Positions 353-61,969 of a DNA stretch of 64,000 nt are shown here, piece after piece. The notes under the pieces are model-generated. The model searched no databases. It was given only the letters and a program-made list of their open reading frames with translations, and was not told the DNA's origin. A program made the position numbers and the translations under genes. This DNA is from a virus, in IMG/VR virus record IMGVR_UViG_3300045125_000156, one strand, 5' to 3'. Position 1 is the first letter of the stretch; each line of letters opens with the position of its first letter.

Positions 353-1385
353 TCAGCAACGTGGTGCACCGCGTTGCTCTACCTTTTTGTCTGGATACAA
401 CTGCTCCAGAGCAGCGCAGCAGCTGACGCGGAAGCCGGTCAGAAGCAACGTCTCGCCGAATGAGCTGCTAATTGAGACCTCAGCAGCTGGTGCGGCCGTT
501 GTTTTGCGCGAGCCATGCGGGAGCCCTTTCCGCCGCTTGAGGCTTACAGGTCGTACCTTGCGCTTCTTCTTCCGCTGCTCGACAACCTCTGCGCCTACGC
601 TGCAGGCATCAACGTAGCCACAGTAATCGCACTGCCACCCGTTTCGGGGGTCGCTTGTTGTTCGTCGATCAGTTGAAGCTTCCGCGCCGACTTGTTTAAG
701 TAAGTAGCAAGCCAGGTCCGCAATCCGACTACGTCCTCTCGGGTCCAAGCCCAGGTCGCCGTTCTCGCGCGGAAACCAATCTACGCTGTCAGTGCCGATA
801 TAGTTGATCCCGCACTGCACCGCGTGCACCGGAAATTGGCCATGACCATGAGCATGTAGGCGTAGAACTGCGTTGAGTGCTCCTGAATCCGCTTCTTTTT
901 CCGCTCTTGTGATCGAGGACGATCATCACGTTATCGCGGGTAATCATGGCGTGGTCGAGCACTCCGCGCAGTAAGCCCGTATTGTCAAGGACGTACGCGT
1001 AAAGTCAGGCTTGATTGCCAGCTGGTGCTCGACAAACTCCTGGGTTACGCCGTGCGTCTCCTTGAATCGACGAATGCGCACGCCGAAGTCAGCAATGGCC
1101 GGAAGCCTCGTCAAAACTTCTCGATGCTCGTCGGTGGTCAGCTCGTCGCGGGCGGTGACATCGGTGAGCATCTTGGCGAGATCTTGCCCGTTCTGCTTGA
1201 GTTCGGCTTCCAGCAACGCGTGAGCAGCAACGCCAACCCGCGAAGAAGCTCTTACGGCCCTCCTTCTGCTTTCGCACGTACTTATAGTCAAACTGCACTC
1301 CGCAGAGATCGAGAAGGTTCGCTTTGGAGATAGACCACGGCCCGTGCTTCCAGAACGCGCTCGTCAAACATTTTGTCCCCTTCAC
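353..1385 (-). CDS. PD-(D/E)XK (Cas4/RecB-like) exonuclease, split by indels
   Basis: Consecutive frames give PWSISKANLLDLC..F.YKY, GVAAHALLE, VEHQL, LDHKSGK, TQFYAY and C-terminal WQCDYCGY..C, the ordered motifs of this family. Confidence 0.8.
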
Positions 1386-1485
1386 GCCGTGAATTTACGG
1401 CCAGATCAATCTAGCGAAAATAACCAACGGGAAAAGCCCCGAGGTCGCACGGGGCGACCTCGGGACTCTCCATACTCATCAGAGG

Positions 1486-2607
1486 TTATTCTTGCTGTAG
1501 TCCGGCAACGCCCCGGCAGCCGCCATCATCGCGGCCATGTCCGCCTGGGCGTTGAGAACGGAGCGCGCCCTTGGTAGGGCGGTCGTAAACCGAGCGCAGC
1601 TCGGGGGCATAGGCCTCGTGGAGAACGAGGCGCGCGAGCGTGCGGAGAACGCCGCGCTCTGCCGCTGTGGTCGGCGCGCCTTGCGGCGCATCATCGGTGA
1701 CGTGCGGAGTGGCCGTGAGCGAGAACCAACGGCCCTTGTCGTTACGCTCCTCGGCGACGCCAAGGTCGAACCACGCGTCCCAGGGCCGGCCCTTCTGACG
1801 GCGGATGGGCTCAACAGCCCTTCTTCCAGGCTTTGACCCTTCACGGTGAGGGCATAGAATGCCCTTGAAACCGTGAAGCACGAAGTAGATTCGCGCCTCG
1901 TCGGTGCAGCTGTCCGGGCGCCCATTTGCCGTTGGCGTACGGGCGGTGCGGACACGCAGCGCAGCCGCCATAACGGCTGCCGCGCACACGGTCGAGGAAT
2001 AGCAGATCGGCGCGCTTGCTGTTCCGGGTTCATGTCCGGAGGGACGGTGGAGCAGGTCATTCGACGAGAGCGCAGCTGCCGCGTCGGCCACCTGCAGGAT
2101 CGCAGCCTTGAAGGTCTTGCCGATCTTCAGAGAGCGGGCCTGCGCCTCGTTGAAGGCCGCCAGCACGAGGCCGTCGGAGAGTGTAAGCTGAACCCACGGG
2201 GCGGTTGCCGGGCGCGCGGGATCGTCACCCACGCCGTGATAGAGGGCTTGCAGCGAGAGGGATCTTGAAATCCACTCGCGCCGAGACAAAACCCTCGCGC
2301 ACCGGGTTGAGGCTGTCGATCATGTTGTTGAAAGCACTCCTGATCCTGCTCAGGAAGCGGCACGACCAATCGCGATCGAGGCTCGCCCTCTTCGGGCGCA
2401 CTCGTCACTAAAAAACAGTTGCCGGATGGAAGCTTCGGCAAAGCGTCTCGCCAGTCGGGAACGGCAAGCGCCGCCTCAGGCGCTCAGGCTCAGGCTCAGT
2501 GGCGGCCTCGACGACCGGAGTTCGGCACTGCTACCGGCGCGGTCTCCTGGGTGGTGATGGTCACGGGTGCCTCTTCGAGGGTGTTGGTTGGAATTTTTCG
2601 TAGCCAT
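1486..2607 (-). CDS. Hypothetical protein, possibly ssDNA-binding or recombination; frameshifted
   Basis: ATG at 2607 with AAGGAGG SD; overlapping ORFs 2127-2441, 1486-2289 and 1479-2060 appear to be one gene. Aromatic segment NDKGRWFSL and position in the replication block only weakly suggest the function. Confidence 0.35.
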
Positions 2608-2660
2608 AGGGCCTCCTTGCCTAACCGAAGCTGGGCGGGTAGATAATAAGCTAAGTAGCC

Positions 2661-3440
2661 GTGCCTGTAAACAAGAAAGCCAAAACGACTCCGCTTGACA
2701 TGAACGCCCTGGCTTCCGAAGTATTTCAACGACGTCAGTCGGCACAAACTGCCTACGTTACAGGAGGAGCGCCGACTTTCACGGCGTACAAAGACGCTCA
2801 GACGAGGCTGAGATCGGAAGAACCACAAGCGACCGCACCCAGGGCGCGAGAGATCGTGCCGAGATTGGGAAGACGATTGCCTGTGGTTACCTCCGATTTG
2901 TCATCCTGCAAGCGCGCCGTAAAACTTCAGATCCGCAACTCCTGAAAGATTTAATCTCTCAGGGCAACGTCAGGCTGATGATCGGCATAAGCAAGTTCGA
3001 TTTAGCTCACGGTGTGCGGTTCTTGACGTATGCCGCCAGCTGGATCGACGTGTGTATGCAGGAGTACCTGCACAAGCTCGGGACGGTTCATGTCCCCAGC
3101 CACGCACGAAAAGAAATGCGGAAACGCCGTAAGAACGCGAACGACCTTGAGGCGCAACTCTACGAAGAGCCCCAAGTAACTTCAATCGACAATGTCACCT
3201 TGATTGCCGACAATGAAACAGATCAATCTCAGTTGAGAATAACCTGCTTCATTACCTGGACCTCGCCGATTTATCGCGCGTAGAAAAACTGGTCATCATC
3301 TACACCCACGGCCTTCGCGGCAATGAGCTCTCGCTTGACGACCTGTCTTTGTTTTTGTTCGAGTTGGACGGTTCGGTGTTCAACCGCAACCAGCTGGAGC
3401 TAAATGAAGCAAGAGGGGCTAAGGAAGATGCGCTCCCTCA
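2661..3440 (+). CDS. Sigma-70-family RNA polymerase sigma factor, frameshifted
   Basis: DLISQGN(V)..LMIGISKFDLAHGVRFLTYAASWID matches sigma-70 region 2.2-2.3 (DLIQEGNIGLMKAVEKFD..RG.KFSTYATWWIR). Confidence 0.8.
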
Positions 3441-3483
3441 TGGCCGCAAGGGCATCGCGGCCATGAGGGATTTCGCGTGAAGA

Positions 3484-4545
3484 TCAGCCCTCGGCTTCTT
3501 CCTCAGTCGCGATGGACTTCGGAAGCGCCTTGAGACCGGACGCGAGCTTAAGGCCGTCGAGCTTGCCGCGCTCGTAGGCGAGCTTGGACTCATCGACGTT
3601 CTCCCTCGACCGCATGCGCGAGATCTTCGCGTCGATGGAGTTGAGCAGCGCCCGGAGCTCAGCGGCCTTGACGATCGCGATGGCGTCGAGCGCGTACTTC
3701 TCCTCAGCCTCGGCCTCGACCTCAGCCTCGGCCTCAGTCTCCAGCCTCGCCGTCCTTCTTCGCCTTCTTCGCCGCCGCACGCCTCCTTGGCCGCCTTCTC
3801 GGCCGCCGCGAGCTTGGCCTCCAGGCGCTTGGCCGCCTCGTCGATGTCGTCGGCGGTCCAGCCCTTCTCGATCGCCTTGACGGCAATCGCGTATTGCTCG
3901 TCCCCATCCTTGACGGCCTTGAGCGGCGCGGATCTTCGTGCCCGTGCCGGGCTCAAGCTGGCCCTTGCGGACCATCTTCTGCACGCGGTCGTCGCAGTCG
4001 AAGACCGCGAGGTACTGCGAGACCTTGCTGTCGGCGACGCCGAGCTCGTCCTTGATCTGGGTCTGCTTGAGGCCGAACTCGTCGCGCAGCGAGCGCATGT
4101 AGTTCGCCTCGTCCCAGAACGAGAGGCTGCGGCGCTTGATGTTCTCGACACCGCAGGCGATGACGGCCTGGAGCAGGGTCAGGGTCTTGATGTGAACCGG
4201 GATGACCCGGTTCTTGTCGTTCGCGGCCGCGATTGCCGCGCGAACGCGCTGCCGGCCGGCAACGATCAGAGGCCGACCTTGCCGGTCTCCCTTGTGGCGA
4301 ACCGGGGTGACGAGCGGCGGCTGCAGGATGCCGTTCGCCTTGACGTCGTCCGCGAACGACGGCTCAAGCTTGATGTTCTCCGAGTCCGCGCGGGAGTCGA
4401 AGTTCGGAAAGATCAGCGAGTTCGGATCGACGTTGTCGGCGGTCTTGGTCGCCTCCAGCATCTCGAACGGAAACGTGTCGACGGCGTCGACGGTGGGGGT
4501 TGCGGCCTTGCGGGACTTCTTGGGGGTGGTCTCAGTCGTAGTCAT
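3484..4545 (-). CDS. parB: ParB/Spo0J-family protein (ParB N-terminal domain, HTH, acidic Ala/Glu-rich tail); one frameshift near 3930
   Basis: GILQPPLV, IVAGRQRVRAA (GxxRxxA motif), ENIKRRSLSFWDEA, and HTH GLKQTQIKDELGVADSKVSQYL; strong AGGAGGAG SD. Confidence 0.85.
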   Translation of the reverse strand: MTTTETTPKKSRKAATPTVDAVDTFPFEMLEATKTADNVDPNSLIFPNFDSRADSENIKLEPSFADDVKANGILQPPLVTPVRHKGDRQGRPLIVAGRQRVRAAIAAANDKNRVIPVHIKTLTLLQAVIACGVENIKRRSLSFWDEANYMRSLRDEFGLKQTQIKDELGVADSKVSQYLAVFDCDDRVQKMVRKGQLEPGTGTKIRAAQGRQGWGRAIRDCRQGDREGLDRRRHRRGGQAPGGQARGGREGGQGGVRRRRRRRRTARLETEAEAEVEAEAEEKYALDAIAIVKAAELRALLNSIDAKISRMRSRENVDESKLAYERGKLDGLKLASGLKALPKSIATEEEAEG

Positions 4546-4792
4546 TCTTCTCCTCCTAGGAGATCGGATCGCCGCGCAGAATTTTTCGTAGCTGCGCTAC
4601 TACGTACTCTTTGTCCAGAAGAGCGAAAGGAAAATCGAGGATGGACCTGCCCTCGATCAGATGGCGGTACGCCTTCCAGAATTCAGCCGAGACGCGTAAT
4701 TCTGGCGCGGGCGCCGCCATGTAGCAAGTAAAGAAACGTCACGATTCTTTTGTGGAGGACGGGGTCGGCCAGCACGTGGGCGTAGTCGCGCC

Positions 4793-5011
4793 TTAGCGCT
4801 CGAACGGTGCGGTCCCGCAGTTCGGACACATACGCGATGTCCGAGATGTCCCCTGATCGTACCCGTGGACCGGACTTCCGCATCGTGGGCAATCCTCCCG
4901 TCCTCCAGCAAAAGATGCTCGTTTGCCTGGCTTTTGCGAGCCCGACGAAGGAAGAGCCGACTCTTCTACCACATTCTCTTCAGAATTTGTGACGACGCCG
5001 AACTTCTGCAT
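4793..5011 (-). CDS. Small zinc-ribbon protein
   Basis: CPRC...CPNC pair in a 72-aa ORF. Confidence 0.6.
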   Translation of the reverse strand: MQKFGVVTNSEENVVEESALPSSGSQKPGKRASFAGGREDCPRCGSPVHGYDQGTSRTSRMCPNCGTAPFER

Positions 5012-5045
5012 GCCGAAGCTTTAACAGGTGCCTACGCCATGTCAA

Positions 5046-5531
5046 TCAAATCTCGTCCTTGAAATCTTCGGGGTCCTTCCCGAACTCCTCGATCGACGGC
5101 GCGACCTGCACCCGAGAAAAACGATCGCGCGCTGGCTGATGCTGTGCCCGGGCGGGGTCAGGGATCTTACGAATGAACTCCTGGCTCTGCCCGACCATGG
5201 CTCGGATCGACTTCTCGTTTTGTAGGCGCTCCGGAAGAGTCTCTACGGCGTCAAGCACGCGATCGGGTTCGTTGCGAGCTTCTCGCGGCGGCGAGGGCGG
5301 CGGTTCAAACCGCCCGGCGCCCCAGGGCGCCGGTCCCGGTTCAGTCCGAGCTGGCGGTAAATTCACGGCGTGAACGCGGATGCCATCAACTTCTACGCTG
5401 ATGGTGCCGAGCTCCTGGTCGTAAAAGAGCCCGAACATCTCGGTGTCGGCGTCAGGTACTTCAAACCCCTGGCGCGTCAGATACTCACGAACCGCGAGCA
5501 GCACGTCATTCTGCGTCAGTGTGATCTTCAT
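5046..5531 (-). CDS. Hypothetical protein
   Basis: Intact 161-aa ORF (MKITLTQNDVLLAVREYL...) with GAGG SD, in an operon with the helicase. Confidence 0.65.
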   Translation of the reverse strand: MKITLTQNDVLLAVREYLTRQGFEVPDADTEMFGLFYDQELGTISVEVDGIRVHAVNLPPARTEPGPAPWGAGRFEPPPSPPREARNEPDRVLDAVETLPERLQNEKSIRAMVGQSQEFIRKIPDPARAQHQPARDRFSRVQVAPSIEEFGKDPEDFKDEI

Positions 5532-7470
5532 GGTCCCTCAGTACGTTGAGATACGCGGTGTTTGCCACCGGTTTAGCCACTTCAGCGCCGTACTTACAAC
5601 CCCTGCGGAAAGGGCGAATCTCGTCACGGGCGCAGTCATTCATACGCTCACAAGCCGCGCATGAAATCCGCTCCAGCATGGTGTACGCCACGTTATCCTT
5701 AAACGCGAGCGTTCTCGCCAAAAAGCCGTCTAGCGCCTGGGGGTGCGTGGACAGCAGGCGGTAGACAACCATGTTGCGCGTCTGTCCTGGACGATTATTG
5801 CGCTCAAGCGACTGCTTGTAGTGCGTCAGGTTCCAGGTCAGCGCGTAATAAATCATGTAATTTGCGGCCGTCAGCGTAACGCCGACACCGGAGCTTACCT
5901 GCCCGATGTACACCCGGCAGATCGGATCTGTTTGAAATTTGTGGCTCAGCTCCTCAATACGGTGCGTCGTGGAGCCGTCCACACGGACGTAGCCGTAACC
6001 AGATTCCGAAACGGCCGTCTCGATGTCATTGAGCTCCTCAAGGTACGTCCCCCAGACGATGACCTTGTTCGTGTCATCATCAGACAGCACGTTACCCAAG
6101 AGCTCTTTGAACGTCGCAAGCTTCGGGTTGGGGAGTCGTTTTATGGCCGTAGGAGGTTTTCTTTGTAAATGTGACACCGCTCCGTGTACGGGCGCACCCC
6201 GTTTTTAACGCAGCCCTGCACATGCTCGCAGCCGTCACAGACGAGCGGATCGGCGCCCTCAATAACGAAGCCTGAAACTAACTGCAAGAGCTTATTGACA
6301 AGAGCGCCACCGTGCGGGGTAGAAACTCCGCGACCGCGTAAAGCGTTGGACTCGGCGTACGCAGCAAAATCTTTGAGCCGCGCGATGCTGGCGTCATACT
6401 CCCGCGCTTGAGCCGAGGACAGGTCGAAGGGTACGTCAATGAACGTAACGGGCGGGAGGTCAATACACTCCTTCTTTTTCATGCGCGTCGCGATGCCTTC
6501 GACGCGCGCGTTCAGTTCATCCAGGTCGCGGTAGCCGTAGACCTGGTGCTTATTGAACTTTGAATAAACAAAGTGTTTTTGTTGATACGCATACCAGGGC
6601 ATGGGCATAAGCGCCGGCGAAAGAAAGCGCATCTGTGCATAGAGCTTGCCCGGATGATCCGCCGCTGTCCCCGAGAGTAAGTAGCGTCGGCACGCCTTGG
6701 CTGAGAGTGTCAGCGCCGCCTGCGTCTGGGAGCTTTCGTAGTTCCCGATGGAGTGGGACTCGTCAGAAGCAATCACCTGGTAATCCAAGTCTTTCAGGCG
6801 CTTGGGGTGTTTATTTTTGGGTCGAACTCAAGCCGCGCTCGCGCGTAGGAGAGTACAACTACGTCGGCGGTCTGGGCCGCCTCGCGTAACTTTGTCGGTG
6901 CCGTCCCAGATAACGGCGCGCAAAGCGCTCTGCGAGCAGCGGCGGACTTCGTTAACCCACGTAGGCAGCACTACCGGAGGCGCCAACACCAGCATGCGCT
7001 TGAGCTCGGGATTTTCACGGCGTGAAAGCCGGAAGCCGTCGATCATCGTACGCGTTTTGCCGGTGCCCATCTCCCAGAGGAAGAAAGAACGCCACCACGC
7101 GGCGATGCGGCGAATGCCTGAGTCTCTGGTGCCGGTAGGGCTCAAACCCCTTGGGGAATTCAAAATCTTCAGGCAGCTCGACATCTTCATCACGCCTGTA
7201 CGCCGACTTGGCGGTCTCCCAGACTTTGTGGGAGGCCTGCAAGTCCTTTATGAAAGAAAGCGCAGAATCAGTCCACTGGAGATCGGGGACTAAAACTTTC
7301 AGATCGTGCGCTGCCGAAAGGCCGAAAGGATAGTATGCTGGAAAGAGCCAATCGGTTCCTGACTGCACGGCGCCGATTACGCGCCGCCAGGGGTCAGGAG
7401 ACACGCTCGTGGGCGTGACTCGCCAGATGGGCGTAAGATTCAGGTGCTGACCAACAACGCTGGGTGCCAT
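5506..7470 (-). CDS. SNF2/SF2 DNA helicase, frameshifted
   Basis: PYRHQ (Q motif), WEMGTGKT (Walker A), IASDESH (DExH), LLSGT, and C-terminal SSGVGVTLTAAN and YKQSLERNNRPGQ motifs; ATG at 7470 with AAGGAG SD. Confidence 0.9.
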
Positions 7471-9174
7471 GACCTCTCCTTCTATAGACACGTCGAATCT
7501 TGCCGAGCCGACCGCCCTGAACGGGGCGAATCCTCTGAACCCCGCGTTCGACTTCCTGACGGGGTTCGTACCAAGAAAGCTCAAGGACCTCTTCAAGTGG
7601 GCCGAGTACCTCGCGTTCAACTCGGCACACATTTACGGGGTCGTAAGAAAATTCAGGGAGTATCCGATTACGTCGTTCATTTACGACACGACGTCGCCCG
7701 ATGAAAAGCAGCGGCACCAGGACCTGTTCGAAAAGAAAACCCGGCTCAAGGGTTTCTTACCCAGGTATCTTTCGACAAGTGGATTTACGGCAACGCCTTC
7801 GTCAGCGTATTTGAGCCGATCAAGCGCTGGCTCCGGTGCACCAAGTGCCGGACGAAGGAAGACGTTAAAGTCGCCGATTACAAGTACGTCGACACGTCGA
7901 CAGCGTTCAAACTGAAATGCCGCAACTGCGGGTTTGAGGGCGTCGCGGAAGTCGAAGATGAAAGCTGATCGACCCGTCGAAGATCAACCTGATCCGCTGG
8001 GATCCGAAGCTCATCGACATCGACCATAACCCCGGTAACCGGGCAGAGCGTCTACTACTACACGATTCCGCGAACGCTCGTGCAGCAGGTCAAAGAAGGC
8101 AATAAGCACCTCATTGGCACCATGCCGATGGAGATGCTCAAAGCTATGAAGGCCAAGAAGACCTTCAAGTTTGCCGACGGGCAGATCTTCCACCTGAAAG
8201 TGCCGGGCCTGCCGGCGTTGAGTCGCAGTGGGGCTTCCCCGATCACCAGCGCGATCAAGCTGTTCCTGTTTGCCGCCATCCTTCGGCGCGCCAATGAGGC
8301 GATCGCCCTTGAACACATCACGCCGTTTCGCGTGATTCACCCACAAGCCGCTTCAGGCAACGGGGACCCCCTCCTGCAGTTGAACCTCGATGAGTGGCGC
8401 CGCGAGCTGGAGAGCAACTACAAAAAGTTTCGGCGCGACCCGCTTCGCATGCAGTTCTCCCCGGTGCCTATCGGCGTACAAAACGTCGGCGGGGATGGCC
8501 GCGCGATGCTGACTCTCGGAGAGCTACAGGAAGCCGAGAAAATATCGTTCTATCGATGGGCGTGCCCATGGAGTTCCTGGCGGAGGGCTCGGGCAGATGC
8601 GCGGCGAGGTCACGCTACGCATGCTGGAAAACCAGCTGCAGACGCACATCGAAGACCTGAACGGCCTGATCCAGTGGATCGAAGGGAAATGCGCGCGCTT
8701 TCTGGGGTGGGCCTCTATCCCCATGCGGCTGGCCGAATTCAAGCTGCTCGACGATGTTGAGAACAAGCAGATTTACTTCCAGCTCTGGCAGCAGGGAAGA
8801 TCAGCGATACAAAGATCGGCGAGCTCTTCGGCATCGATTGGGAGCACGAGCGCAAGCAGAAGATGGAAGACGTCTTGAGCGAAATGAAATCGCAGATGCA
8901 GCTTGAGGCCGCCCAGAAGAAGCTCCAGAACGCGCTCTCCCAGCAGGCGGCAAACAAAGCCCAGATGTCGCAGAACCCCGCGCAGTACGACCAGCAGGCG
9001 ATCATCGCGCAAGCCGACCAGATCGCGCAGGAGTTCGCCCAGATGGATATCGGCACTCGCCGGTCGCGCATGGACGCACTCAAGAACGAGGACCTCATCA
9101 TGGCCTCGGTGGTGCGTGAGCGGCTTGAGCAGATGCAGCAAGACCAGAACGCAGCCCAGCGAGCACAGCGATGA
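7469..9174 (+). CDS. Portal-like protein, frameshifted, with Gln-rich C-terminus
   Basis: About 560 codons across ORFs 7469-7915, 8080-8760, 8597-8878 and 8863-9174. Helical character, size and position fit a portal, but no diagnostic motif proves it. Confidence 0.55.
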
Positions 9175-9776
9175 GCGACGACTTCGGGAAATTCATTGAC
9201 CAGGCTCAGACCGCCGACCGGGTGGAGAGCCGGTTTGCCGGGCTTGAATCCGAACTGGAGGTGCACGCCGGCGCCAAGAAGAAGGCCAAGTACACCTACG
9301 AGTGCCGGGTTTTCACGGTCTTCCGGCCTTGGCAGGAATGTCACCGCTGTCAGAAAGCGTTTCGCCCAAAAAAGAACGCAGAAGGCCAGTGGGAAGACCC
9401 GGACCTGCAGATGCCGGAAGACGAAGACTTTATCTGCCCTCACAACGAGATGGAAGAGTACACGACGCTGGTCAACAAGATTTCACGGGGTGAAGCCCGC
9501 CTGATCCGGCGGTCCCTTGAAACTTTGAAGACCGGCGTCGTGCAGGCGCTGCTTGAATGGGGCGAGCCGAACTTCTCGAACAAAAGAAGAGTCAGGAGCC
9601 GTTTCCACGGCTCTGACTCTCCCGCCTCACTCGTCCGGGGTTACCTACGAGCGAGGCGCCGTTATAGCGCGATGACGCTCTCCTCCCAGGCGTTCTCCTG
9701 GGGAGGGCGTCGTCGGCGAAGAACTGAGACCAGTTCTTCTTCTCTCTCCTCTCCTTCCGCCATTCCTGGCGGTTGA
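9171..9776 (+). CDS. Hypothetical protein with CxxC and ICPH motifs
   Basis: Start overlaps the upstream stop (ATGA); ECHRC and FICPH; the 3' end is probably frameshifted. Confidence 0.55.
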   Translation: MSDDFGKFIDQAQTADRVESRFAGLESELEVHAGAKKKAKYTYECRVFTVFRPWQECHRCQKAFRPKKNAEGQWEDPDLQMPEDEDFICPHNEMEEYTTLVNKISRGEARLIRRSLETLKTGVVQALLEWGEPNFSNKRRVRSRFHGSDSPASLVRGYLRARRRYSAMTLSSQAFSWGGRRRRRTETSSSSLSSPSAIPGG

Positions 9777-9921
9777 GAGCCTTGTTCGTGGTGGCCATCA
9801 GAGGATGACCACCAGCCAGAGAACTGATGTAATGCACATGAAAAATCTCCGGGTTCGTCACGGACACAATCGTCGCGTGACAGTTTCTTCTACCAGCAAC
9901 ACCCCTTAAAATTTCCAAGCC

Positions 9922-12900
9922 ATGACCCAACTCACGCCCGTGCTCACCGACGCAGAAACGCTTCGCGGAAAGATTCACGAGAAGGTCACCGGCGCGCTCG
10001 CCAGCGTGTTCCCGATGGACCTTAAAGGGCGGACGTTGGAGGTCAAAGACCTGAAGGTGCACCATCGCGACTACTCGTCCGACGAGCAGAAGAAAGCCCT
10101 GCTGAGCGGCGACTCCTGCAGACACCTGTGAAGGGGACGTTGGTGCTCAAGGGCGCCGATGGGCGTGTGATCGATGAGGCGAAGAACTTCACCCTCGTCC
10201 ACATCCCGTACATGACGCCACGGCACACCGTGATCGCGGACGGCAACGAGTATCAGTTCGCAAATCAGATTCGCCGCAAGCCCGGCGTGTATACGCAGCG
10301 CGCCGAAAACGGAGAGCTCAAGACGATCTTCAACACGGGGCGCGGCAAAAACTTCGATCTCGGCTTCAACGAGGCCAAGGGAACGTTCTCGCTGCAATAT
10401 GGAACGAGCAACATCCCGCTCTACGCCGCCTTGCGGGGCTTAGGGGTAACGCACGACGAGATCTCCAAGCATCTCGGAGAAGGCGTCGCCAAAGCCAATC
10501 AAGTCGCGCACGAAAAACACATCGAGGCCGCTACGGCCAAGCTCTATCAGAAGCTTGAACACCCGGCCGTTTACGACCCGAAGCTCCCACACGTCGCCAA
10601 AGCCGAGGCGATCAAAAGAAGTACAGCATCGCGACGCTTGATCCGGCAGTGACCGAGCACACGCTTGGGCAGGCGCATGACCGCGTAACGCCGACAGCAC
10701 TTCTTCACGCCGCGAAAAAGATGCTCGCCGTGCACAACGGCAAAATCCCGGTAGACGACACCGACTCTCTCACCTTCAAGACCTTCCACGCCGTCGATGA
10801 CTTCCTGGCCGAGCGCATTCGTCTGACAGCGCGCACATGGGCGCCAAAAGCCAAGATGGCGTTCAGCGGCAAAAGCAACATTCGTGAAGCGCTGCGCCCC
10901 GCGCCCTTCTCGGACTCGATCCGCAAGTTCGTGACGACGTCGTCTTTGACGGCCGTACCTAGCGGGATCAACCCGCTGGAGCTCATGGATCACGCCGTGA
11001 AAGTCACGTCGCTTGGCGAAGGCGGGATCTCGTCTGACCGCGCAATCCCGCTTGACGCCCGCATGACGCACGCGACGCACTTCGGGGCGTTAGACCCGAT
11101 TCGTACGCCCGAAAGCGGATCGGCTGGTGTAGACATCCGCGCGACCATTGCCGCGCACCGCGATGACCGAGGAAACTTCTACACGGCCATGAAGGACGTG
11201 AAGACCGGGAAACAAGTCTTCATGCGGGCCGGCGACCTCGTCAAAAACGTCGTGGCGTTCCCCGGGCAAAACCTCAAGGGGAGCGTCAAAGCGTTCGTCA
11301 ACGGGAAGATTGAAGAAGTGCCGGGCTCACGGGTGACGCACGAGATGCTGCACCTGTCGCACCAGTACTCACCGGCGACGAGCCTCATCCCGATGATTCA
11401 CAACATCCAGGGCAACCGCGCGATCATGGGTTCCAAGATGGGGACTCAGGCGCTACCCCTGCTTGATCGGGAGACGCCCTACGTCCAGGTAAAGAGCCAT
11501 CTGCCGGGCGAGGTGTCGTTTGAAAAGGTCTACGGGCATCTGACCGTGCCGACATCGCCGGTCAACGGAACCGTAGAGAAGATCCAGGACGGGTACATTT
11601 ATATCCGGCCACATGGGGAGAAGAAGGCCGAGGACCGCCCCGTCATCGAACAGAAGAAGCTCGGGCCGCACACCTTCAACCTGGAGATGCTGCGCCACCA
11701 GTTTGAGGACGCTCCTGGTATGCTCACGACCCGATCGGGCAACTGGGACTACGGCCATCTACCCGGCTACACGGGGCCTGATGGGGACTCCCTCGACTTC
11801 TTCGTCGGCGACCACCACGACGGGCACATCTTCTCGTTCGACAAGCAGCGCAACGACGACGGCAAGGGCTGGAAGACCACGGACACGAAGTTCGTGGTGG
11901 GCGTGACGCCCGAGCAGAAGGCTGAGTTCCGTCGCCGCCAGGCCGTGTACAACTCTGGGCCCGCACCCATGCGGCACACGAACATCCGAGAGTACAAGGA
12001 CTGGGGCCACCTCCAGCGCCACATCGACGAGCACTTCAAGAACGAGAAGAGCGCCGCTGCCAAGGACGACGGCCTCATCAAAGTCCCCTACGAAACGAAC
12101 TTCCCGTTCCCCTCAAAGACCTACCTGCATCACGACATTCAGGTAAAGCCGGGGCAGACAGTTCAGCAGGGGCAACGCCTTGGCGACTCGAACTTCACGC
12201 GCAACGGCACGCTCGCGCTCGGGAAGAACCTGCTCGTTGGGTACATGGCCTATCACGGCTTGAACTCCAATGACGCCGTCGTCATCAGCGAAAGCTGCTC
12301 CAAAAAGCTCACCAGCGAGCACATGTACCGCGAGATCTACCCACTCGTCACAAATCGAGCTCTCGCGCGACAAGCACAAATCCTATTACGGCACCAAGTT
12401 CACGCCGCAGCAGTACGCGAAGCTTGATGCTTCCGGCGTGATCAAGCCCGGTACGCGTGTTGACCCGAAAGACCCGCTCGTACTCGGGCTGACGCGCGCT
12501 CAGATTCAAGGGCAAGACCTTCTCCTTGGGCGCATCTCGAAGTCGCTGACCAAGCCCTACAAAGACGTCGTGCTTCAATGGGGGCACGGCACCCCCGGCG
12601 TGGTCGTTGAAGTCCTCCGAAGCTCGGGGCAGATCGCGATTTTGATCAAGACCCAGGAGCAGATGCAAGTCGGCGACAAGCTGGCCGGGCGTTACGGGAA
12701 CAAGGGCGTCGTCGCGAAGATCGTCGCTGATCACGAAATGATTAAGGACGAGAAAGGACGCCCGCTCGATCTCATCCTGACGTCCGCTGGCGTCGTAAGC
12801 CGCATCAATCCCGCACAGGTCATCGAAACCGCCGTCGGCAAAGTCGTCGAGAAGACGGGCAAGCCCATTCTCTACGACAACCAGGAGCACAAGGACGCCG

Positions 12901-14840
12901 TTCAGTGGGCCAAGGGGCTTTTGAAAGAGCACGGCATCAAAGACAAAGAGCACGTCTTTGACCCTGTGACCAAACGGACGATCGTCGGACCTGACGGCAA
13001 GGGCGTGCTCGTCGGGCGGCAGTTCATCTACAAGCTCTTCAAGAGTACGGACACAAACTTCTCCGGCCACGGCGTCGGCCCGTACGACGTAAACGAACAG
13101 CCCCTGAAGACTGGCGGGGACGAGAGCGCCAAGGGCATCGGCAAGATGGAGTTCGACGCCATCGTGGCCCACAACGCCCGTAACTTTCTGCAGGAGGCCG
13201 CGTCAATCAAAAGCCAGAAGAACGATGAGTTCTGGCGTGCGATCCAGCTCCGGGATGCCGCTGCCGACCCCAAAGCCTTCGTTCGCCTTCAACAAGTTCA
13301 CCGCCATGCTTGAAGGCGCGGGGATCAAAGTCGACAAGCGGGGGTCGAAGTTCAAGCTCTTGCCGCTAACCGACAAAGACATCACACAGCGCAGCAAAGG
13401 CGCGATCACCGAAAAGGAAACGCTGATCGCCAAGAACCTGAAGCCGATTAAGGACGGCCTCTTTGACCCGCTGAAGACAGGCGGGCCTCAAGGCACGCTG
13501 TACTCTCACATCGACCTCCATGAGCCGATCCCGAACCCGGTATTCACCGAGCCGGTGCGGCGCCTTCTCGGGCTGTCCACAAAAGACTTCGAGCAGCGGC
13601 TACACGACCATGGCGGCGCGTGGTTTCACAAAGAGCTTCAAAAGATCGACGTTGACACGAAACTCAACGAGCTCACCAAGGCGATGAACAAAGCGTCGGG
13701 CCCTGAGCTCGACAACCTCGTCAAGCAGGTGAAGTACCTCCGCGCCCTGAAGAGCGAAAACCTGAAGCCCCACGAGGCTTACATCCTGTCCAAGGTGCCG
13801 GTGATTCCGCCGGTCTTTCGCCCGGTGCTGCCCGAAATGCGCGACCCGTCCAAGCTGATGGTTGCGGACGCCAACAAGCTTTACGGGCACCTTCTCGACA
13901 CGAACAATACGCTCAAGACCACTGCCCTTGAGAGCGATCGCGGCAAGCACCGCGCCCTTGTCTTTAAGTCTGTCGGGGCGGTCTTCGGCATGAATGACCC
14001 CGAGGACGAGAAGCTGCAGAAGCAGGAAGTGAAAGGCTTCCTACAGAATATTGCCGGCGTGAGCACCCCGAAGGGCGGCTTCTTTCAGCGCAAGCTCATG
14101 CGCCGAACGCAAGACGTATCAGGACGTGGAACGGCCGTGCCGGACGGAAACCTCGGCATGGATGAAGTGGGCATTCCGGAGCAGATGCTCTGGCAGATGC
14201 TCGACAAACTCATCGTGGCGCGCCTAGTCCGGCAGGGGTACTCAGCCCTACAGGCGCGCGACCTTGTCGACAAAAAAGCGCCCGTCGCCCGCGAAGCCAT
14301 GCTCGCCGAAAGTCGTGAGCGCCCCGTACTCATCAACCGTGCGCCGACGCTTCACCGCTGGTCGGTTGTGGCCGCGTATCCAAAGCCGGTGCAGGGCAAG
14401 ACGAGATCCGCGTCAACCCCTTCGTCGAGAAGGGCATGAACCTCGACTACGACGGCGACACCCTTCAGGTGCACGCGCCCGTTCAACCGGGGGCCGTCGA
14501 AGACGCAAAGAAGATGACGCTCAGCCAGATGCTCCTGGCGGACCAACAGCGTAACAAGCTCATGGCCTTCCCACAGCACGAGGCCATCATCGGCTTTACG
14601 CTGGCGTCAAAGGCCACACCTACGGGACCGGCGCACCGATTCAAGACGCGCGACGAAGCCATGGCCGCGTGGCGTTCCGGCAAACTCAAGCTCACGGATG
14701 GCATCATCATCGAGCACGAAAAGAAAGCGGGAGCCGACGATTTTAGCGAGCCTTTAGACGGCACGCCGATGACGTCTGACGACGCGCTATGCTATTACCC
14801 AGCGGAGAGTGTGACGGGCTATGAACCGCAAGCTAGCTGA
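9922..14840 (+). CDS. rpoB-rpoC: Multi-subunit RNA polymerase: beta fused to the N-terminal half of beta' (several indels)
   Basis: Beta motifs IPYMT..QIRRKPGVY, SLGEGG..THFGALDPIRTPES, NRAIMGSKMGTQALPL, LALGKN, GDKLAGRYGNKGVV, VSRINPAQ and GIGKMEF. These run within one ORF (13225-14439) into beta' motifs GLFD..SHIDL, VPVIPPVFRP, QDVSGRG and LINRAPTLHR; the catalytic NLDYDGD follows in ORF 14436-14840. Confidence 0.92.
11618..12060 (+). other. Inorganic-pyrophosphatase-like domain inserted in RNAP beta
   Basis: DYGHLPGYTGPDGDSLDFFVG and a downstream TDTKF resemble family I PPase NYG.IP.T...DGDPLD...D.K; the flanks are collinear with RpoB. Confidence 0.7.
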
Positions 14841-15432
14841 CATGTTGAGCGGGAGCCTGACTTCGACGTCGATCAAGCGCCCAGGCGAGCCAATGATTCA
14901 CGCCGTGAAAACGGAAGGCCCGCTCGGTAACCTGCTGAAGTCGATGGTCCCTGGGCCCTCGATGCACGCGATGCTCCGCGACATGGTGCCGTCGTCGATG
15001 AGCGGCGATGATTGCGGCTGCGACAACGTAGAAATCTTGAAGAAGCTGTCGTCCAAGAAGTACCAGCTGATCCTCGCGTACATTCATTACGGAGATCAAC
15101 TACGGGCGCTCTACCGGGACCGGCATCTACGAGCACTTTCAGGGCACCTGGAAGAAGAGCGCTCCCAGCTCTATCAGATCAACAAGAAGGTCACCGCCCT
15201 GGGGCATGACGCACCTTGTTGTCCGGGCGAAGTGCCGCCGGTGCCGCTCAACGACGCCAAGGCGATTTTTCGTGTCGCCCTGAAGATCGAAGAAGAATCG
15301 GTGCAACTCTGGTCCGATCTTTTCCGTCAAACCGACGACGACGTCGCCCTCAACGGCATGGCCCAGACGTATGCCCAGGAGTGCCAGGGGCACGCAGACG
15401 ATCTAAAGCGCTATCTGCGGAGCTGTGAATGA
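14821..15432 (+). CDS. Ferritin-like (bacterioferritin/Dps-like) four-helix-bundle protein
   Basis: Helical pattern AYIHYG..., HLEEERSQ...KVTALG, IEEE...W..LF, AQECQGHADDL with the E/ExxH spacing of ferritin-like folds. Confidence 0.65.
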   Translation: MNRKLADMLSGSLTSTSIKRPGEPMIHAVKTEGPLGNLLKSMVPGPSMHAMLRDMVPSSMSGDDCGCDNVEILKKLSSKKYQLILAYIHYGDQLRALYRDRHLRALSGHLEEERSQLYQINKKVTALGHDAPCCPGEVPPVPLNDAKAIFRVALKIEEESVQLWSDLFRQTDDDVALNGMAQTYAQECQGHADDLKRYLRSCE

Positions 15433-15525
15433 GTCACGTTAGCGGCCACGAGACACCTCAAGTAAAACGAGAGCGCGGGTTCTACCGGGACCCCGATCCG
15501 CGTTTCAAAGACTTCAAGGGGAAGT

Positions 15526-15726
15526 TTGAGGACGCATCTCGGAGCAATGGCGAACGGCAGGTCAAAGAGGGCGGCGATTCGACACGTGCTTGCCAAGTAC
15601 GCGCTACTCGACGAGGTCGGGAACCCCATCGACGGCCTCACCGAAATTATCCGGGGCGACGACTTCGGTTATACTAAGCGCCGCGCTGGACGGCCGGCAC
15701 GGATGAGTGATGAAAAACCTGTCTGA
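15526..15726 (+). CDS. Small hypothetical protein with K-x-A motifs
   Basis: 66-aa ORF containing SKRAA and LAKYA. Confidence 0.4.
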   Translation: MRTHLGAMANGRSKRAAIRHVLAKYALLDEVGNPIDGLTEIIRGDDFGYTKRRAGRPARMSDEKPV

Positions 15727-15813
15727 GGGCCGCCATCCGGACTCGGTGCAGGCTGGACGGCGGATCAACTAGGCTGGAACCAGGGCGTGTCGTACGGCGG
15801 CGTATGACCGTGT

Positions 15814-15819
15814 TACACT
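15814..15819 (+). promoter_or_regulatory. Putative -10 element (TACACT) 6 nt upstream of the beta'-C start; example of a leaderless-type promoter
   Basis: No SD sequence; similar TAnnnT elements lie 5-9 nt before eight other starts. Confidence 0.45.
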
Positions 15820-15825
15820 AGCGCC

Positions 15826-17635
15826 ATGCCTACGCCCGTTTCAGTTGGTCACTTCCTGATCAACGACGTCTTGCCCGAGACCCACAAAATCACCGGGCCG
15901 GTCACGAACAAAAACGTGCACGATCACGTCGTCGGTCTGGCCAAAGATAACCCCGCCGAGTACGTGAAAGTCATCACGGCGCTTAAGCGGCGAGGCGACG
16001 AAATTGCCACACTTGAAGGTGTGAGCGTCGGCCTTGACGACATCGCACCCGATTACAAAGCACGCGACGCGATATTGAAACCTGCGATTGCGAAGATTGA
16101 AAAAGCCAAGACCGAGATCGAGCGGGAAAAGCTCGTCATCGAGGCGCAAAACGCGCTACTCGATTATACAAAAAGCACCCCGGCTCGATGACGCATATGG
16201 CATCTTTCCGGAGCGCGCGGAAACCCCGCACAGCTCATGAAGATCGTCGCGACGCCGCTGGCGGCGGTGCACCGAAGCACGGTATCGAGCGGATACCCAT
16301 CAAGCGGAGCTACGCCGAAGGGCTGACCGCCGCCGAGTACTGGGCGACCGTGCCTGAGGTCCGCGCCAATAACGTCGCCACCGTGGTGTCGGTCTCCGAG
16401 CCTGGTGAAATGGCCAAAGTCCTCGTCAACAACATGATCGGGACGACGGTCACGCGGCCGGATTGCGGAACAAAAACGGCGTGCACATGCGCCTCGACGA
16501 CGGCCACATTCTGGACCGGTACGCACAAGACAGCCGGGGCGTTGCACGGAATACGCTTGTAACGCCCCGGCTCGTACAGGAGCTTAAAAGCAAAAACATC
16601 CAAGAGCTCCTCGTGCGCTCACCGATGACGTGCGCCGCTTCGCATGGCGTCTCGCCAGCATTGCCAAGGGCACAGCGAAAAGGGGCAGCTTCACGGGATT
16701 GGCGCTCCGGTGGGCGTGCGCGCCGCACTAGGCTCTGGCAGAGCCTTTGACACAGATGGCGCTCTCATCAAAGCACGCCGTACTGACGATCAAAGAGCGA
16801 AAGCTTGAGCCGACAGGGCTTAAAGGCGTGCGGCAATACCTTGAAGTCCCCAAGGCTTTCAAGTTCGAAGCAGTGCTTGCCCCGCACGCGGGCGTCGTCA
16901 CTAAAATAGAAAAGGCTCCGCAAGGCGGGCACTACATCGTCGTCGGAAGCGAAAAGCTATACGCGCGCCCGGAGCTAACGGTGACGATTGAAATGGGCGC
17001 TCGCGTGGAGCACGGTGACGCGCTCACAGACGGCGTTCCAAACCCGCAAAAGGTTGTGGCCGCAAAGGGTCTTGGGGCCGGCCGAAATTACTTCGTCAAC
17101 GCCGTCCATCGCGTGTATCAGGGCGACGGCATCAACCTTGACAAGCGGCACCTTTGAGCTATTGGCCAAGAGCGAAATGAACCACGTTCGATTTTTGGAA
17201 ACGGACGATCATCATCCGGAGTTTCTAAAGGGTGACGTCGTAAACTACAACGCGTTCCGAGACGCGTATATGAAGGATGCTAAGCGCGTCCCGCTCGACC
17301 AGGCCATAGGCAGTCTTTTGGGGCAAGAAGTGCTGCACCATACTGTCGGCACGCCTATTACTCCCGGGCTTGCGCAAGAGTTGAAATCAAAGCGGTGTTC
17401 GTGAGGTGATGGTGAACAAGCGCCTGCCTCAAGTAGAATTTGTAATGAAGCCCTTCGCCATGAACCCCCTGCTAGAAAGCGACTGGATGGCGCGTTTGGC
17501 GCACCGCTATCTCAAAGGGTCGCTACAGCAGGCTGCGCAATTTGGCGAGACCTCCGACATCCACGGCACCCATCCCATTCCGGCCTACGCTTACGGTGCT
17601 GAACTTCGGAACGGCCCATCGGGACAATACTGATG
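15826..17635 (+). CDS. rpoC: RNA polymerase beta' C-terminal half, frameshifted
   Basis: GVSVGLDDI, (G)ARGNPAQL (frameshifted), IPIKRSYAEGL, PDCGT, VRSPMTC and trigger-loop region LAEPLTQMALSSKH, collinear with the RpoC C-terminal half. Confidence 0.85.
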
Positions 17636-18177: not shown

Positions 18178-18222
18178 GCCCAGAAACGCCTCATAATTGA
18201 AATCGACAAGGAGTTCTCCGAA

Positions 18223-20400: not shown

Positions 20401-20472
20401 CGCTGGCTGATCGCAGTAACAACTAGCGTCTCTTCGAACGCCTGCGGCTATACTAGCCGCAGGCGTTCGCCT

Positions 20473-22983
20473 TTGAGGAGCAGCACAATGACGATGGAGT
20501 TCCCCCTTTCTCAGTCCCCGCGAACCCAGGGCTTTCAAATGCCACAAGCGCCCGAGGACGAGAAAGACCTATTTACCCAGGGCTTCTCCGACCTGGCGTA
20601 TCGTGCTTTTCAGAAGACGCAGCCAGAACTGGTTAGTAACATTCTGACCTTCCGCGTGCTCGACGTTGATGCCGAGGCGGGCCAAGGCATCGGCACGTTC
20701 ATCGTCCAAAACGAGCAAGACATCGTCTTCGTGCCTTGCGTAGTGTCGGAAAACTCGGTCAAACCTCTTGACCTGTTTTATTCACGAACCTTCGACAAAT
20801 TTTACCCCTTCACGACTGCTTGGCTGCGTGAATCGTCGAAGGCCAACATCAACCAGTTAGGCTCTGGTGTACGGGCGCCTAAGACGATGCCGACCGACGT
20901 CGACATTCGTAACCTCGTCGTGCCGCCTACAACCGGGCGCTATAGCTACGCGTCAACGATCGAAGAAGACGCATGGTTGCCTTTCACGGTAGCCGTGCGC
21001 AAAGAAAAGAATGCGGAGCTCGGCGCGGAGCCGCAGTTCTTAAACCTCCTCGACCGCAGTTCGGACGGCTTCAAAACAGCGTTCGCCCAGGTACTATACC
21101 GTCGCCCGAAACTAGCGAAGCTCTTCGCTGAGTTCTACGGCGCGGAGAAAGTCGCGGCCGTAATTTCGCGGCGTGAAAAAACCGCGCAGGCGCATCGAAA
21201 AGAAGTGCCGATGACAAAGAGCGTAGCGATCATGACCAACGCTACGCCCGTCACGCAGATCAAGCGCGAGCTGAAGCCGGGTGAAGCCGCACGTGCTTTC
21301 CAGCAGATCCGGCTTCATGGCTTTTACGTAAAAGACCCGCGCCCCGCCACGGACAGCCTGGTGTCTTTTGCCGAGACAGACTTACAGCTATCTCAGCCCA
21401 CCGTGCCCGGCGTCTACAACGTGTACACGGCGCGCGGTGAAATTGAGCGCTGCATCATTGTCCCCAAGCCGCTATCGATTCATCGCCGCCGCAGCGGCGA
21501 AGCCCGCTTTCCGACCGGGTACTACCACGACGACCGAAACCGTGAGAGCGGTCTGAAGCTTCGGCGCGGTTTCATGGTCCTGTTCCCGGACGGGCGCTAC
21601 GCCATGATGGACGACATGGTGGCCGAGCCCATCACCGACGTCAGCCACAAAGAGGTATCGGACTTCCTGGAGTCCTTTACGAAGGAGTCTCCGTCCAATC
21701 GTGAGCGCGGCGTCCTCATCTCGGCCGCCGACATGGACATTCGGGCATTCGAGCCCGTCGAAGCGGACGAGGTGCTCAACACGAAAGACAAGATCGTCTT
21801 TCGCGGAGCTTTCCACCACACAGTGTCAATCAGCAAAGTAATGACCGGCAACGGTGTTTACTACCCGCAAGATTCTGACACGATCGTTCTTGCCAATTCC
21901 TTCCGCTGGTTCCCGCGTGGGCGCCAACTCAGCAACTCTGAAATTCTGTCATCTCCTGGGTCCGTGTTTCGCCTGATTGAGGCGCGGCTTGTAAAGCAAG
22001 GGGCGCAGCGCGTTTCTGTAAAAAGGCAGGCCTGAACTTCATCGTAGATGGCGACGGCGTACCGCTAGCCCCGCTCAAAGCCGTGAAAAAATCGCCAACC
22101 ACTACAACCTCCGGGATCAAAGAAGCTTCCGAGATTGTAACCGTAGCGGGCGCTGGACTCCCCCTCTCGCTATGGCGCATAAAGACGGCGCAGGGCAGTC
22201 GCTGGATCCGAACGCGCCTCCGCCGCCAGACCCGAACATGGCGCCTCCGGGCCCGCCGCCTGGGCCGAGCGGGCTAGACCTTACGCGCAAGAAAAGCTAC
22301 AGCAAATTCAGTCGCAATTGCGGCGCTGCAGCAATGCAGCAAATCCTGACGGAAGTACAGCAACGCGCCCAAATGATCGGATCAAGGCGGCGGTGCGATG
22401 GCCGCCCCGGGGGCAGCGGCGTCGATGGCGGCGGGGCCTGGGATGATGGGCGGGCAGCCCGCGATGGCCCCCGCCGACATGGGCGGCGGGCCGCAAGGTC
22501 CGATGCCTCCGCAGGGTGGTCCGCAAGGTCCGATGCCTCCGCAGGGCGGGCCACAAGGTCCGATGCCTCCGCAGGGTGGTCCGGGAATGGAGGCACCTCC
22601 GCCGCCACCTCCTGTAATGCCGGAGGGCCCGACGTCTCCACAAAACCTGGAGCAGCAAATCAACCCCGCGTTCCTCCAGGACGCGGCGTCGCTTCAGGAC
22701 ATGGGCGTATTTGATGCCGCCGCCATCGCCTCTATGTCCAAGCAAAAGAACGTGGAAAGACCTCGTGCAGGTCTACACGCCGAGCCTTGAAAAGGCCATG
22801 GACAACCTTGGGCGCATGCTGCTGCTTTTCTACATGAAAGAAAACGAAATCAAGCAGCAAATTGGGGCGGAAAATTACGAAGAGACTGAGCAGAAAATTC
22901 GAGACGTATTCAAGGGAATCGGCGACGCCGTGGTCGCCCTGAACCAATACTCTGATCAGCTCATGACGCCTTCGATGCGATGA
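20473..22983 (+). CDS. Large putative virion protein with Pro/Gly/Met-rich linker, frameshifted
   Basis: ORFs 20473-22035, 22172-22714, 22398-22790 and 22711-22983 appear to be one gene; EKNAE, EKTAQ and EKVAA motifs. Confidence 0.6.
22490..22585 (+). repeat. 30-nt coding tandem repeat, about 3 copies (GPQGPMPPQG)
   Basis: ggtccgcaaggtccgatgcctccgcagggt-like unit repeated three times. Confidence 0.85.
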
Positions 22984-23080
22984 GTTCAACGCTTCATGCC
23001 CGCGCAACTCCCCGACTTTCGAGCTAAACGCCTAATCCGGGAAGCTCAAACCCAGGACGACACCGTCGCCACGGATAGTC

Positions 23081-53124: not shown

Positions 53125-53139
53125 ACCCTGAAGGGTAGC

Positions 53140-53646: not shown

Positions 53647-53649
53647 GGC

Positions 53650-55051: not shown

Positions 55052-55071
55052 ATCAGTGTTATGGTAGGCCT

Positions 55072-55330: not shown

Positions 55331-55334
55331 AATT

Positions 55335-61703: not shown

Positions 61704-61969
61704 GCAGGAAGGATAAGATTCACGGCGTGAAAATAAAGCTACCGAGGGATAACTTCGACCGGCACGGGCTGTCGCACCCGATGCATAACATCGATAACGT
61801 CATTCGCGAAGTCACTGAGGTCAGGTGGAAAGTGTAGCTTCGGTTTGGCGCCTTGCCCCGGCACCCCCACCAAAAATTCCGGAAGAAACCGCCCCGGGCG
61901 CTTCAAGTAGTAATTCTTCGCCTGTCGATGGAAAGGCGCGACGCTGAAACAGGGGATTTCCCTCACGCG

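Follow-up and report, generated by a model that had tools for sequence, protein, structure and literature searches.

An orphan ParB-type gene and an evenly dispersed palindrome in a clade of large uncultured phages

Clamp proteins of the ParB family serve in the segregation of chromosomes and plasmids (ParABS), tie DNA to the membrane (Noc), or silence and activate genes at a distance (KorB, VirB, BisD). The OB sites of KorB, about 12 in the plasmid RK2, are scattered round the replicon, some of them near promoters and some far from any. Here we describe an orphan ParB-type gene and a dispersed palindrome in a stretch of 64,000 nucleotides (nt) of the virus record IMGVR_UViG_3300045125_000156 (IMG/VR), in the following called the window, and compare both with the corresponding elements of related phages.

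KorB of the IncP plasmid RK2 is a ParB-family clamp that uses cytidine triphosphate (CTP) and acts at a distance by sliding (PMC11790492, PMC13584720), and its operator OB, TTTAGC-S-GCTAAA, is a 13-bp odd palindrome (PMC11790492). Noc of Bacillus subtilis is an orphan ParB paralog without ParA, which has palindromic NBS sites over the chromosome, nucleates there, and spreads in a CTP-dependent manner (PMC8429893, PMC7383237). For phages, the Cluster O mycobacteriophages (Corndog) have been reported to contain 34 copies of a 17-bp palindrome of the type 7-N3-7 in intergenic DNA, at the 5′ ends of genes, and inside genes; the orphan ParB-like protein gp90 was named among three possible binders, and the function of the repeat was left open (PMC4351075). 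KorB with OB and Noc with NBS are the nearest functional analogues of the system described here, and the Cluster O repeat is the nearest phage precedent. In the literature, we came across no description of a phage ParB connected with an array of sites that tiles the genome.

The gene in question is the following:

3484..4545, minus strand: orphan ParB-type gene, an open reading frame (ORF) of 353 amino acids (aa) with an N-terminal nucleoside triphosphate (NTP)-binding domain, a helix-turn-helix (HTH) and a C-terminal dimerisation domain, as indicated by Pfam, the intact ortholog and dimer prediction

Judged from its sequence, this is a real gene of the ParB/Spo0J/Noc family with the canonical build. 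A sequence-only reading of the window had recognised a phage ParB with a GxxRxxA box, an EN..R box and an HTH, and all three were recovered, i.e. AGRQRVRAA, ENIKRRSL, and a match to the Pfam family HTH_ParB above the cut-off (E-value 2.9e-8). The match of the window ORF to ParB_N (E 1.1e-4) is slightly under the cut-off. Protein work was based on the intact ortholog of the related genome G001 (352 aa, 75% identical to the window ORF) and not on the window translation. This ortholog matches HTH_ParB over the full profile (positions 3-101 of 102, E 1.6e-14) and carries the PHROGs label ParB-like partition protein. TIGR00180 is passed by the orthologs of G001 (59.0 bits versus a cut-off of 58.45) and G002. 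Among solved structures, a profile of eight orthologs matched Noc (7ng0, 4e-22), Caulobacter ParB (6t1f, 1.5e-19), KorB (8qa8, 8e-7), and other chromosomal ParBs. A DNA search of the phage collection with the window gave no match.

Residues G97, R98, R100, E134, N135, and R138 are invariant across the eight orthologs. Residue classes defined with Caulobacter ParB mutants (PMC8367383) were mapped onto the ortholog alignment, and the NTP-binding residues R60, G79, R104, N136, and R139 (Caulobacter numbering) were found to be invariant, as was E135. The phage ParB may bind and hydrolyse CTP and close into a clamp. The C-terminal domain is predicted to dimerise: the homodimer score was 0.49 versus 0.00 for the best control, with contacts limited to residues 281-344 in the conserved C-terminal domain; 20 of 30 solved homodimers and one of 23 single chains attain the mark applied for a homodimer. 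The earlier observation that no ParA is visible was borne out beyond the window. A search with PF13614 gave no match in the complete relative G002 and in G001, while all 14 control genomes were positive, and the ParA-binding motif LG[KR]GL is absent from every ParB ortholog examined.

The pattern TTCAC-N3-GTGAA occurs in 17 exact copies in the 64 kb, versus 0.04 expected. When up to two mismatches to the 15-mer are allowed, the window contains 24 copies, i.e. one per ~2.6 kb:

1380..1394: motif copy CTTCACGCCGTGAAT
2777..2791: weak motif copy with 2 mismatches, TTTCACGGCGTACAA
5361..5375: motif copy ATTCACGGCGTGAAC
7013..7027: motif copy TTTCACGGCGTGAAA, within the SNF2 helicase gene
9481..9495: motif copy TTTCACGGGGTGAAG
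10703..10717: motif copy with 2 mismatches, CTTCACGCCGCGAAA
10988..11002: motif copy with 2 mismatches, GATCACGCCGTGAAA
14896..14910: motif copy ATTCACGCCGTGAAA, directly 3′ of a start codon
17645..17659: motif copy CTTCACGCCGTGAAA, codons 5-9 of an ORF
21164..21178: motif copy TTTCGCGGCGTGAAA
23094..23108: motif copy TTTCACCTCGTGAAA
25817..25831: motif copy TTTCACGCCGTGAAA
27625..27639: motif copy TTTCACGTCGTGAAA
31229..31243: motif copy CTTCACGTCGTGAAA
33991..34005: motif copy TTTCACGCGGTGAAA
39302..39316: motif copy CTTCACTCCGTGAAA
41575..41589: motif copy GTTCACGCCGTGAAA
44357..44371: motif copy with 2 mismatches, CCTCACGGCGTGAAA
45646..45660: motif copy CTTCACCGCGTGAAA
49021..49035: motif copy TTTCACGACGTGAAA
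53145..53159: motif copy CTTCACGCCGTGAAA
55333..55347: motif copy TTTCACGGCGCGAAA
58519..58533: motif copy TTTCACGCCGTGACA
61718..61732: motif copy ATTCACGGCGTGAAA

The relatives G001, G003, and G005 have 39, 18, and 17 exact copies, respectively, and a control pattern has none. A position matrix was calculated from 121 sites of the window and three relatives. The presumed spacer turned out to be G at position −1 (82%), S at the centre (76%), and C at position +1 (82%), so that the site is a continuous odd palindrome of 13-15 bp with the consensus tTTCACG-S-CGTGAAa, and not a parS with a free 3-bp insert. The pattern TTCAC-N3-GTGAA of the earlier description was confirmed, but its spacer is not free. 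Within coding regions, 87 of 134 sites are read in the frame xTT CAC NNN GTG AAx. A peptide signal (F-H-A-V-K) was considered and rejected; other frames and both strands are also used and the centre is variable, which argues that the constraint acts on the DNA.

As had been proposed, the sites tile the genome and do not mark one centromere. Site spacing has a coefficient of variation (CV) of 0.42 for the window and of 0.44-0.62 for relatives, versus ~0.97 at random, and close pairs are few. The regularity is significant in G001, G002, and G005 (P<=1e-4). Genomes of 130-190 kb contain 50-90 sites. For five relatives the placement of 178 sites was analysed: 44 are intergenic (14.5 expected), 58 are at most 100 bp away from a called gene start (33 expected), and ~75% are inside genes, in more than one frame. 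In pairs of genomes with the same palindrome arms, ~60% of the sites in shared genes are at the same place (11/20, 11/17). In pairs with different arms there are almost no shared positions (2/21, 0/9), while density and regularity are unchanged. Judging from these counts, coverage is conserved, and not where the sites lie with respect to given genes. In the complete genome G002, the longest stretch without a site (52972-61454) measures 8.5 kb, versus a mean of 2.6 kb, and spans parB and downstream genes. Sites 340-800 bp upstream of parB were found in several genomes; as candidates for autoregulation they were dismissed as uninformative, because the mean spacing is 2.5 kb.

To compare gene and motif across the clade, 31 IMG/VR contigs and several metagenome contigs were collected via RNA polymerase pieces and ParB alignments. 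The clade consists of large (130-190 kb) uncultured phages with their own multisubunit RNA polymerase, and parB is a conserved syntenic core gene. The syntenic place lies about 7-14 kb away from the genes for the polymerase, and all contigs that reach it contain this ParB; the contigs of G005, G011, G012, and G020 end before that point and have none. In about 25 related contigs, the ParB gene was found together with a palindrome every ~2.5 kb. In all contigs listed below, an odd palindrome recurs at even spacing; its arms are specific to the lineage and surround a common AC-G-S-C-GT core, from which the palindromes of G004 and G024 depart. The arms are distributed as follows:

TTCAC: window, G001, G003, G005, G021, G022, G026, L061-63
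TTTAC: G002, G006-G012, G014, G015, G020, G023, G025, G031
[AG]TAC: G013, G016-G019
TTTCC: G004
TTAACC: G024

The subclade of G027, G029 (94% complete), and G030 has neither a ParB of this type nor an enriched dispersed word. The co-occurrence across relatives, which the sequence-only reading had named as a check, was therefore observed in every contig that covers the syntenic place, and gene and motif are missing together in one subclade. An initial result that G027 and G029 lack any ParB was corrected. Both encode a different, non-syntenic ParB-like protein of ~320 aa with GRSRVRA, SENEARR, and a weak HTH_ParB match (19 bits), and neither a clustered nor a dispersed repeat was found for it:

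G029, 21956-23011: non-syntenic ParB-like gene
G027, 139736-140782: non-syntenic ParB-like gene

The arms also co-vary with the ParB recognition helix. The helix GVADSKVSQYLAVF is identical in the window and L061-63 and differs in one residue in G001, all with TTCAC arms, although the ParBs that share it are only 64-75% identical overall. Genomes with TTTAC arms have helices of the type ..EGNVSQ.LA.GK, with a three-residue insert further on, and those with [AG]TAC arms have ..VSQYLG[VI]FDL. The first helix position is equivalent to R173 of Caulobacter ParB, one of four specificity residues of ParB and Noc (PMC7383237). It is Asp in TTCAC genomes including the window type, Glu in most TTTAC genomes, and Asn in the ParB of contig L006 (IMGVR_UViG_3300015606_001684). 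In L006, sites with TTCAC and TTTAC arms lie side by side (741-19499), together with the hybrid TTCAC-N3-GTAAA; the contig may represent a natural intermediate step from one specificity to another. More distant contigs with a phage ParB have a different arrangement, i.e. tight clusters of three to four short palindromes (e.g. CGGAAA-N-TTTCCG) 0.1-7 kb from parB. This is a classical centromere-like arrangement, unlike the tiling in the clade of the window:

L055, 11312-11388: clustered palindromes near parB
L058, 8013-8113: clustered palindromes near parB
L052, 3502-4065: clustered palindromes near parB

The comparison with the described systems shows likenesses and differences in each case. 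The layout of OB recurs in TTCACG-S-CGTGAA of the window and in TTTACG-S-CGTAAA of G002, and both kinds of sites are dispersed. The phage sites, however, are more numerous (24 in the 64 kb of the window, 50-90 per genome), are significantly even in their spacing, and are inside genes in 75% of cases. The phage has neither IncC/ParA nor a recognisable KorA or TrbA partner, and the G001 ortholog scores 16.5 bits with PF08535 (cut-off 22.3); in sequence it is closer to Noc and ParB. Among solved structures, Noc gave the best profile match, and the NBS half-site TTTCCC resembles the TTTCC arm of G004. In contrast to the phage protein, Noc is cellular, has an N-terminal membrane-targeting helix, of which none is evident in the phage ParB, and binds an even palindrome of 14-16 bp. 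With a TIGR04285 score of 69 bits versus a cut-off of 315, the phage ParB is not a Noc. With Cluster O, the phage shares an orphan ParB-like protein without ParA, gp90, which is 33% identical to the G001 ParB over 144 aa of the N-terminal domain. But gp90 has 502 aa and no HTH_ParB match, host phylum and phage type are unrelated, and the Corndog sites are not even but crowded in the right arm. Corndog was rejected as an evenly spaced analogue because of its CV of 1.07. Canonical ParABS (parS TGTTTCACGTGAAACA) agrees with the phage system in ParB_N, HTH_ParB and the C-terminal dimer, in GxxRxxA and ENxxR, and in the TTTCAC arms of the window lineage. It differs in that the phage has no ParA and no ParA-binding peptide, does not keep R173, Q58, and E102, and has dispersed odd palindromes instead of clustered even ones beside parB.

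What is observed are the gene with its domains, the regularly spaced motif, and the co-occurrence and co-variation of ParB and motif. From these observations, the phage ParB is, on balance, probably the reader of the dispersed palindromes, and the earlier choice of this protein as prime candidate binder appears well founded, given its co-occurrence with the palindrome in contigs covering the syntenic place. The best reading is that of a KorB/Noc-like orphan whose loading sites would tile the chromosome. The palindrome tTTCACG-S-CGTGAAa would be a nucleation or loading site, and a ParB dimer would dock on each copy. As is the case for ParB, Noc, and KorB, binding of NTP would close the docked dimer into a clamp, which would then slide away. 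Since loading sites recur every ~2.5 kb, clamps would come to cover the phage chromosome as a whole and would not mark one centromere. Possible purposes are the genome-wide organisation or marking of phage DNA and a long-range control of the phage's own transcription.

Several results weigh against this reading. The ParB_N scores of the window ORF and the G001 ortholog are 22.6-24.4 bits, versus a Pfam cut-off of 26.3. Of the three Caulobacter ParB residues tied to CTP hydrolysis, two are exchanged in all members (Q58 for Asp, E102 for Arg), and in Caulobacter ParB loss of either abolishes hydrolysis (PMC8367383); the clamps may therefore be long-lived, and the nucleotide chemistry may be different from that of known clamps. 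R173, which reads G1 of parS in Caulobacter, is not kept and is D, E, N, or A in the orthologs. The contrast of presence and absence consists of one subclade, which also lacks the rival reader discussed below and has another ParB-like protein. TTCAC arms occur in two ParB subgroups with different helices (SKVSQYLAVF versus S[NT]V[ST]QT[LI]S[LV]LT in G021, G022, and G026), so that helix and arms do not follow a simple one-to-one code. Common descent confounds the co-variation, since all genes of these phages diverge in parallel. Lastly, the intergenic quarter of the sites and the enrichment near gene starts would also fit an ordinary regulator.

Dimers of Xre and Cro bind palindromes of 14-17 bp, which is in favour of another dimeric DNA-binding protein of the phage as reader, above all an Xre-type HTH protein as a genome-wide repressor comparable to the stoperator system of Cluster A mycobacteriophages, with ParB unrelated to the sites. 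Pfam scans of ~30 conserved G001 proteins revealed one other plausible reader, which is of this type, and a second sigma-like protein:

G001, 13985-14332, outside the window: Xre-type HTH protein, 115 aa

The protein (HTH_31/HTH_3) is conserved in G001, G002, G007, and G018, weakly in G013, and, like the motif, is absent from G027 and G029, and the over-representation of sites in intergenic DNA and near gene starts fits such a repressor. Like that of ParB, its recognition helix is not the same in TTCAC and TTTAC genomes; helix co-variation was considered as a means to separate the two candidates, but both co-vary and it does not discriminate. As most proteins of the clade have no family match, other binders may be hidden. 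On the other hand, no Xre-type ortholog was detected in the complete, motif-bearing genome G024 and in G031 (80% complete), both of which contain ParB. The location of 75% of the sites in genes and the turnover of positions with preserved spacing fit coverage better than promoter control, and palindromic, orientation-free sites are unlike the asymmetric, oriented stoperators (PMC4351075). We regard this alternative as unlikely. A second proposal came with the sequence-only reading, i.e. that the motif is a parS derivative with half-sites 3 bp apart, so that host ParB cannot bind and an orthogonal ParB/parS pair results. The TTTCAC/GTGAAA arms are indeed the inner parS half-sites, and by sequence the phage ParB is nearer to chromosomal ParB and Noc than to KorB. 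However, relatives with the same ParB family have TTTAC, [AG]TAC, TTTCC, or TTAACC arms, so that the identity with parS half-sites is specific to one lineage; most copies have the G-S-C spacer and R173 is not kept. In addition, no relatives of the phage that could point to a host were found in 185,579 bacterial and archaeal species genomes, so that avoidance of host ParB is conjectural. The zero-spacer site that had been noted beside parB is present, but it is a chance match:

3471..3482: near-parS without spacer, TTTCGCGTGAAG, which matches by chance and is not kept in G001

The sequence TTTCGCGTGAA (3471-3481) lies 2 nt from the parB stop codon (3484-3486) and has two mismatches to TTTCACGTGAAA. 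The window contains four such matches versus 2.1 expected, and 16 of 100 shuffles reach four. It was therefore rejected as a relic parS, and the parS-derivative proposal appears improbable. Taken together, the earlier observation was largely right and its candidate binder well chosen, but no support was obtained for the account in which parS half-sites were moved apart to escape host ParB.

The hairpin promoters of phage N4 resemble a 5-7 bp stem with a 3-nt loop, and the palindrome might thus be a nucleic-acid signal (a hairpin promoter, pause, or terminator for the phage RNA polymerase) or a place where DNA is nicked or bases are modified. In favour of a signal, the phages encode a polymerase of their own together with two sigma-like factors, and more sites than expected lie close to gene starts. 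Against such a signal, the sites have perfect dyad symmetry and no orientation bias relative to transcription, most copies are inside genes and far from starts, no T-run follows the motif hairpin in the window copies, and both arms change in concert between lineages, as expected of a homodimeric reader. A Tet/JBP dioxygenase was not found, but the control search was silent, too. We consider this explanation rather improbable. A phage ParB that activates 5mYOX has been described, which lacks a DNA-binding domain and is paired with a Tet/JBP thymine dioxygenase (PMC13229309). A role of the present ParB as thymine-dioxygenase activator was rejected, since it has an HTH and no Tet_JBP gene was found with PF12851 in G001, G002, G007, and G010, a search in which the controls were also silent. 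The last alternative is a classical partition system of a plasmid-prophage, like SopB of N15, which has four dispersed sites. It would be in line with the ParB family membership, but neither a ParA (complete genome G002) nor a ParA-binding motif was found, there are no prophage or plasmid relatives in the 185,579 species genomes, the genomes have direct terminal repeats at their ends and an own RNA polymerase, and 50-90 sites are far above the need of partition. Partition is thus very improbable.

The middle part of the window copy of parB appeared to be out of frame, and the copy was compared with independent assemblies. Contigs of four public runs from four studies were aligned with positions 3300-5300, and all four agree against the window. 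Nine single-base indels were found within these 2 kb, five in the parB ORF (3741, 3782, 3925, 4267, 4289) and four outside (3401, 3447, 4557, 4729). The ORF stays open because the errors compensate each other, but in comparison with the G001 ortholog the translation is wrong at residues ~207-270 and ~93-101 (~70 residues). With a simple gene caller, 58% of the window is called coding, versus 89-97% in relatives. The indels and the low coding fraction indicate that the window is an indel-rich assembly of a phage with an intact ParB. Findings on this window that are based on frameshifts need comparison with relatives. Split genes were also observed for the SNF2 helicase (5506-7632, four pieces) and the RNA polymerase (10128-22035, many pieces).

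The surroundings of parB contain the following features:

4556..4892, minus strand: small gene upstream of parB and overlapping it, split into two frames by the indels 4557 and 4729
2978..3283, plus strand: gene fragment for a sigma-70-type factor of the phage, oriented convergently to parB; its ortholog in G001 has 273 aa (Sigma70_r2, E 1.2e-9)
3435..3469: inverted repeat, arms of 13 bp, in the space separating parB from the sigma gene; kept in G001
window 10128-17635; G001 71667-77645 and 79901-81706: RNA polymerase genes

The small upstream gene has an ortholog of 118 aa in G001 (66259-66615) and is also present in G003 and G004. It has no match in Pfam, PHROGs, and NCBIfam. Its overlap with the parB start suggests translational coupling, and its product could be a partner of ParB. 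Eight large G001 proteins were analysed with Pfam for an SMC-like partner, and six of them have no match. Beside the sigma and ParB genes, at 944-2289 of the window (minus strand) and 62274-64333 of G001, lie genes for a PD-(D/E)XK nuclease (E 4e-18) and for a protein of 368 aa, and elsewhere G001 encodes a second SNF2 helicase and a RuvC-like resolvase. The RNA polymerase of the clade consists of an ORF of 1992 aa, a fusion of beta and the N-terminal part of beta′, and a separate C-terminal beta′ protein of 601 aa (61-77% identical). The fusion gene is directly followed by a gene for a ferritin-like protein (Pfam Ferritin, E 3e-11). Runs of 15 studies, on freshwater, soil, estuary, aquaculture, and wetland samples, contain DNA nearly identical to positions 3300-5300 of the window, showing that the phage is widespread.

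A more general, tentative proposal, which we consider possible but somewhat doubtful, is that these phages represent a widespread class of virulent-type phages in which an orphan ParB clamp, with sites kept ~2.5 kb apart, marks the whole chromosome as self. If true, self-marking could organise or compartmentalise the DNA, shield it, or serve the phage RNA polymerase as a mobile cofactor, and the specificity of ParB and its 50-90 sites would co-evolve in concert. The five arm types with their matching ParB helices would represent natural specificity variants for a concerted change of binder and sites. The Cluster O mycobacteriophage repeats, unexplained since 2015, would gain a candidate reader. 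It would be a new use of ParB, i.e. the coating of a whole viral chromosome, even with a 13-bp palindrome written into the proteins.

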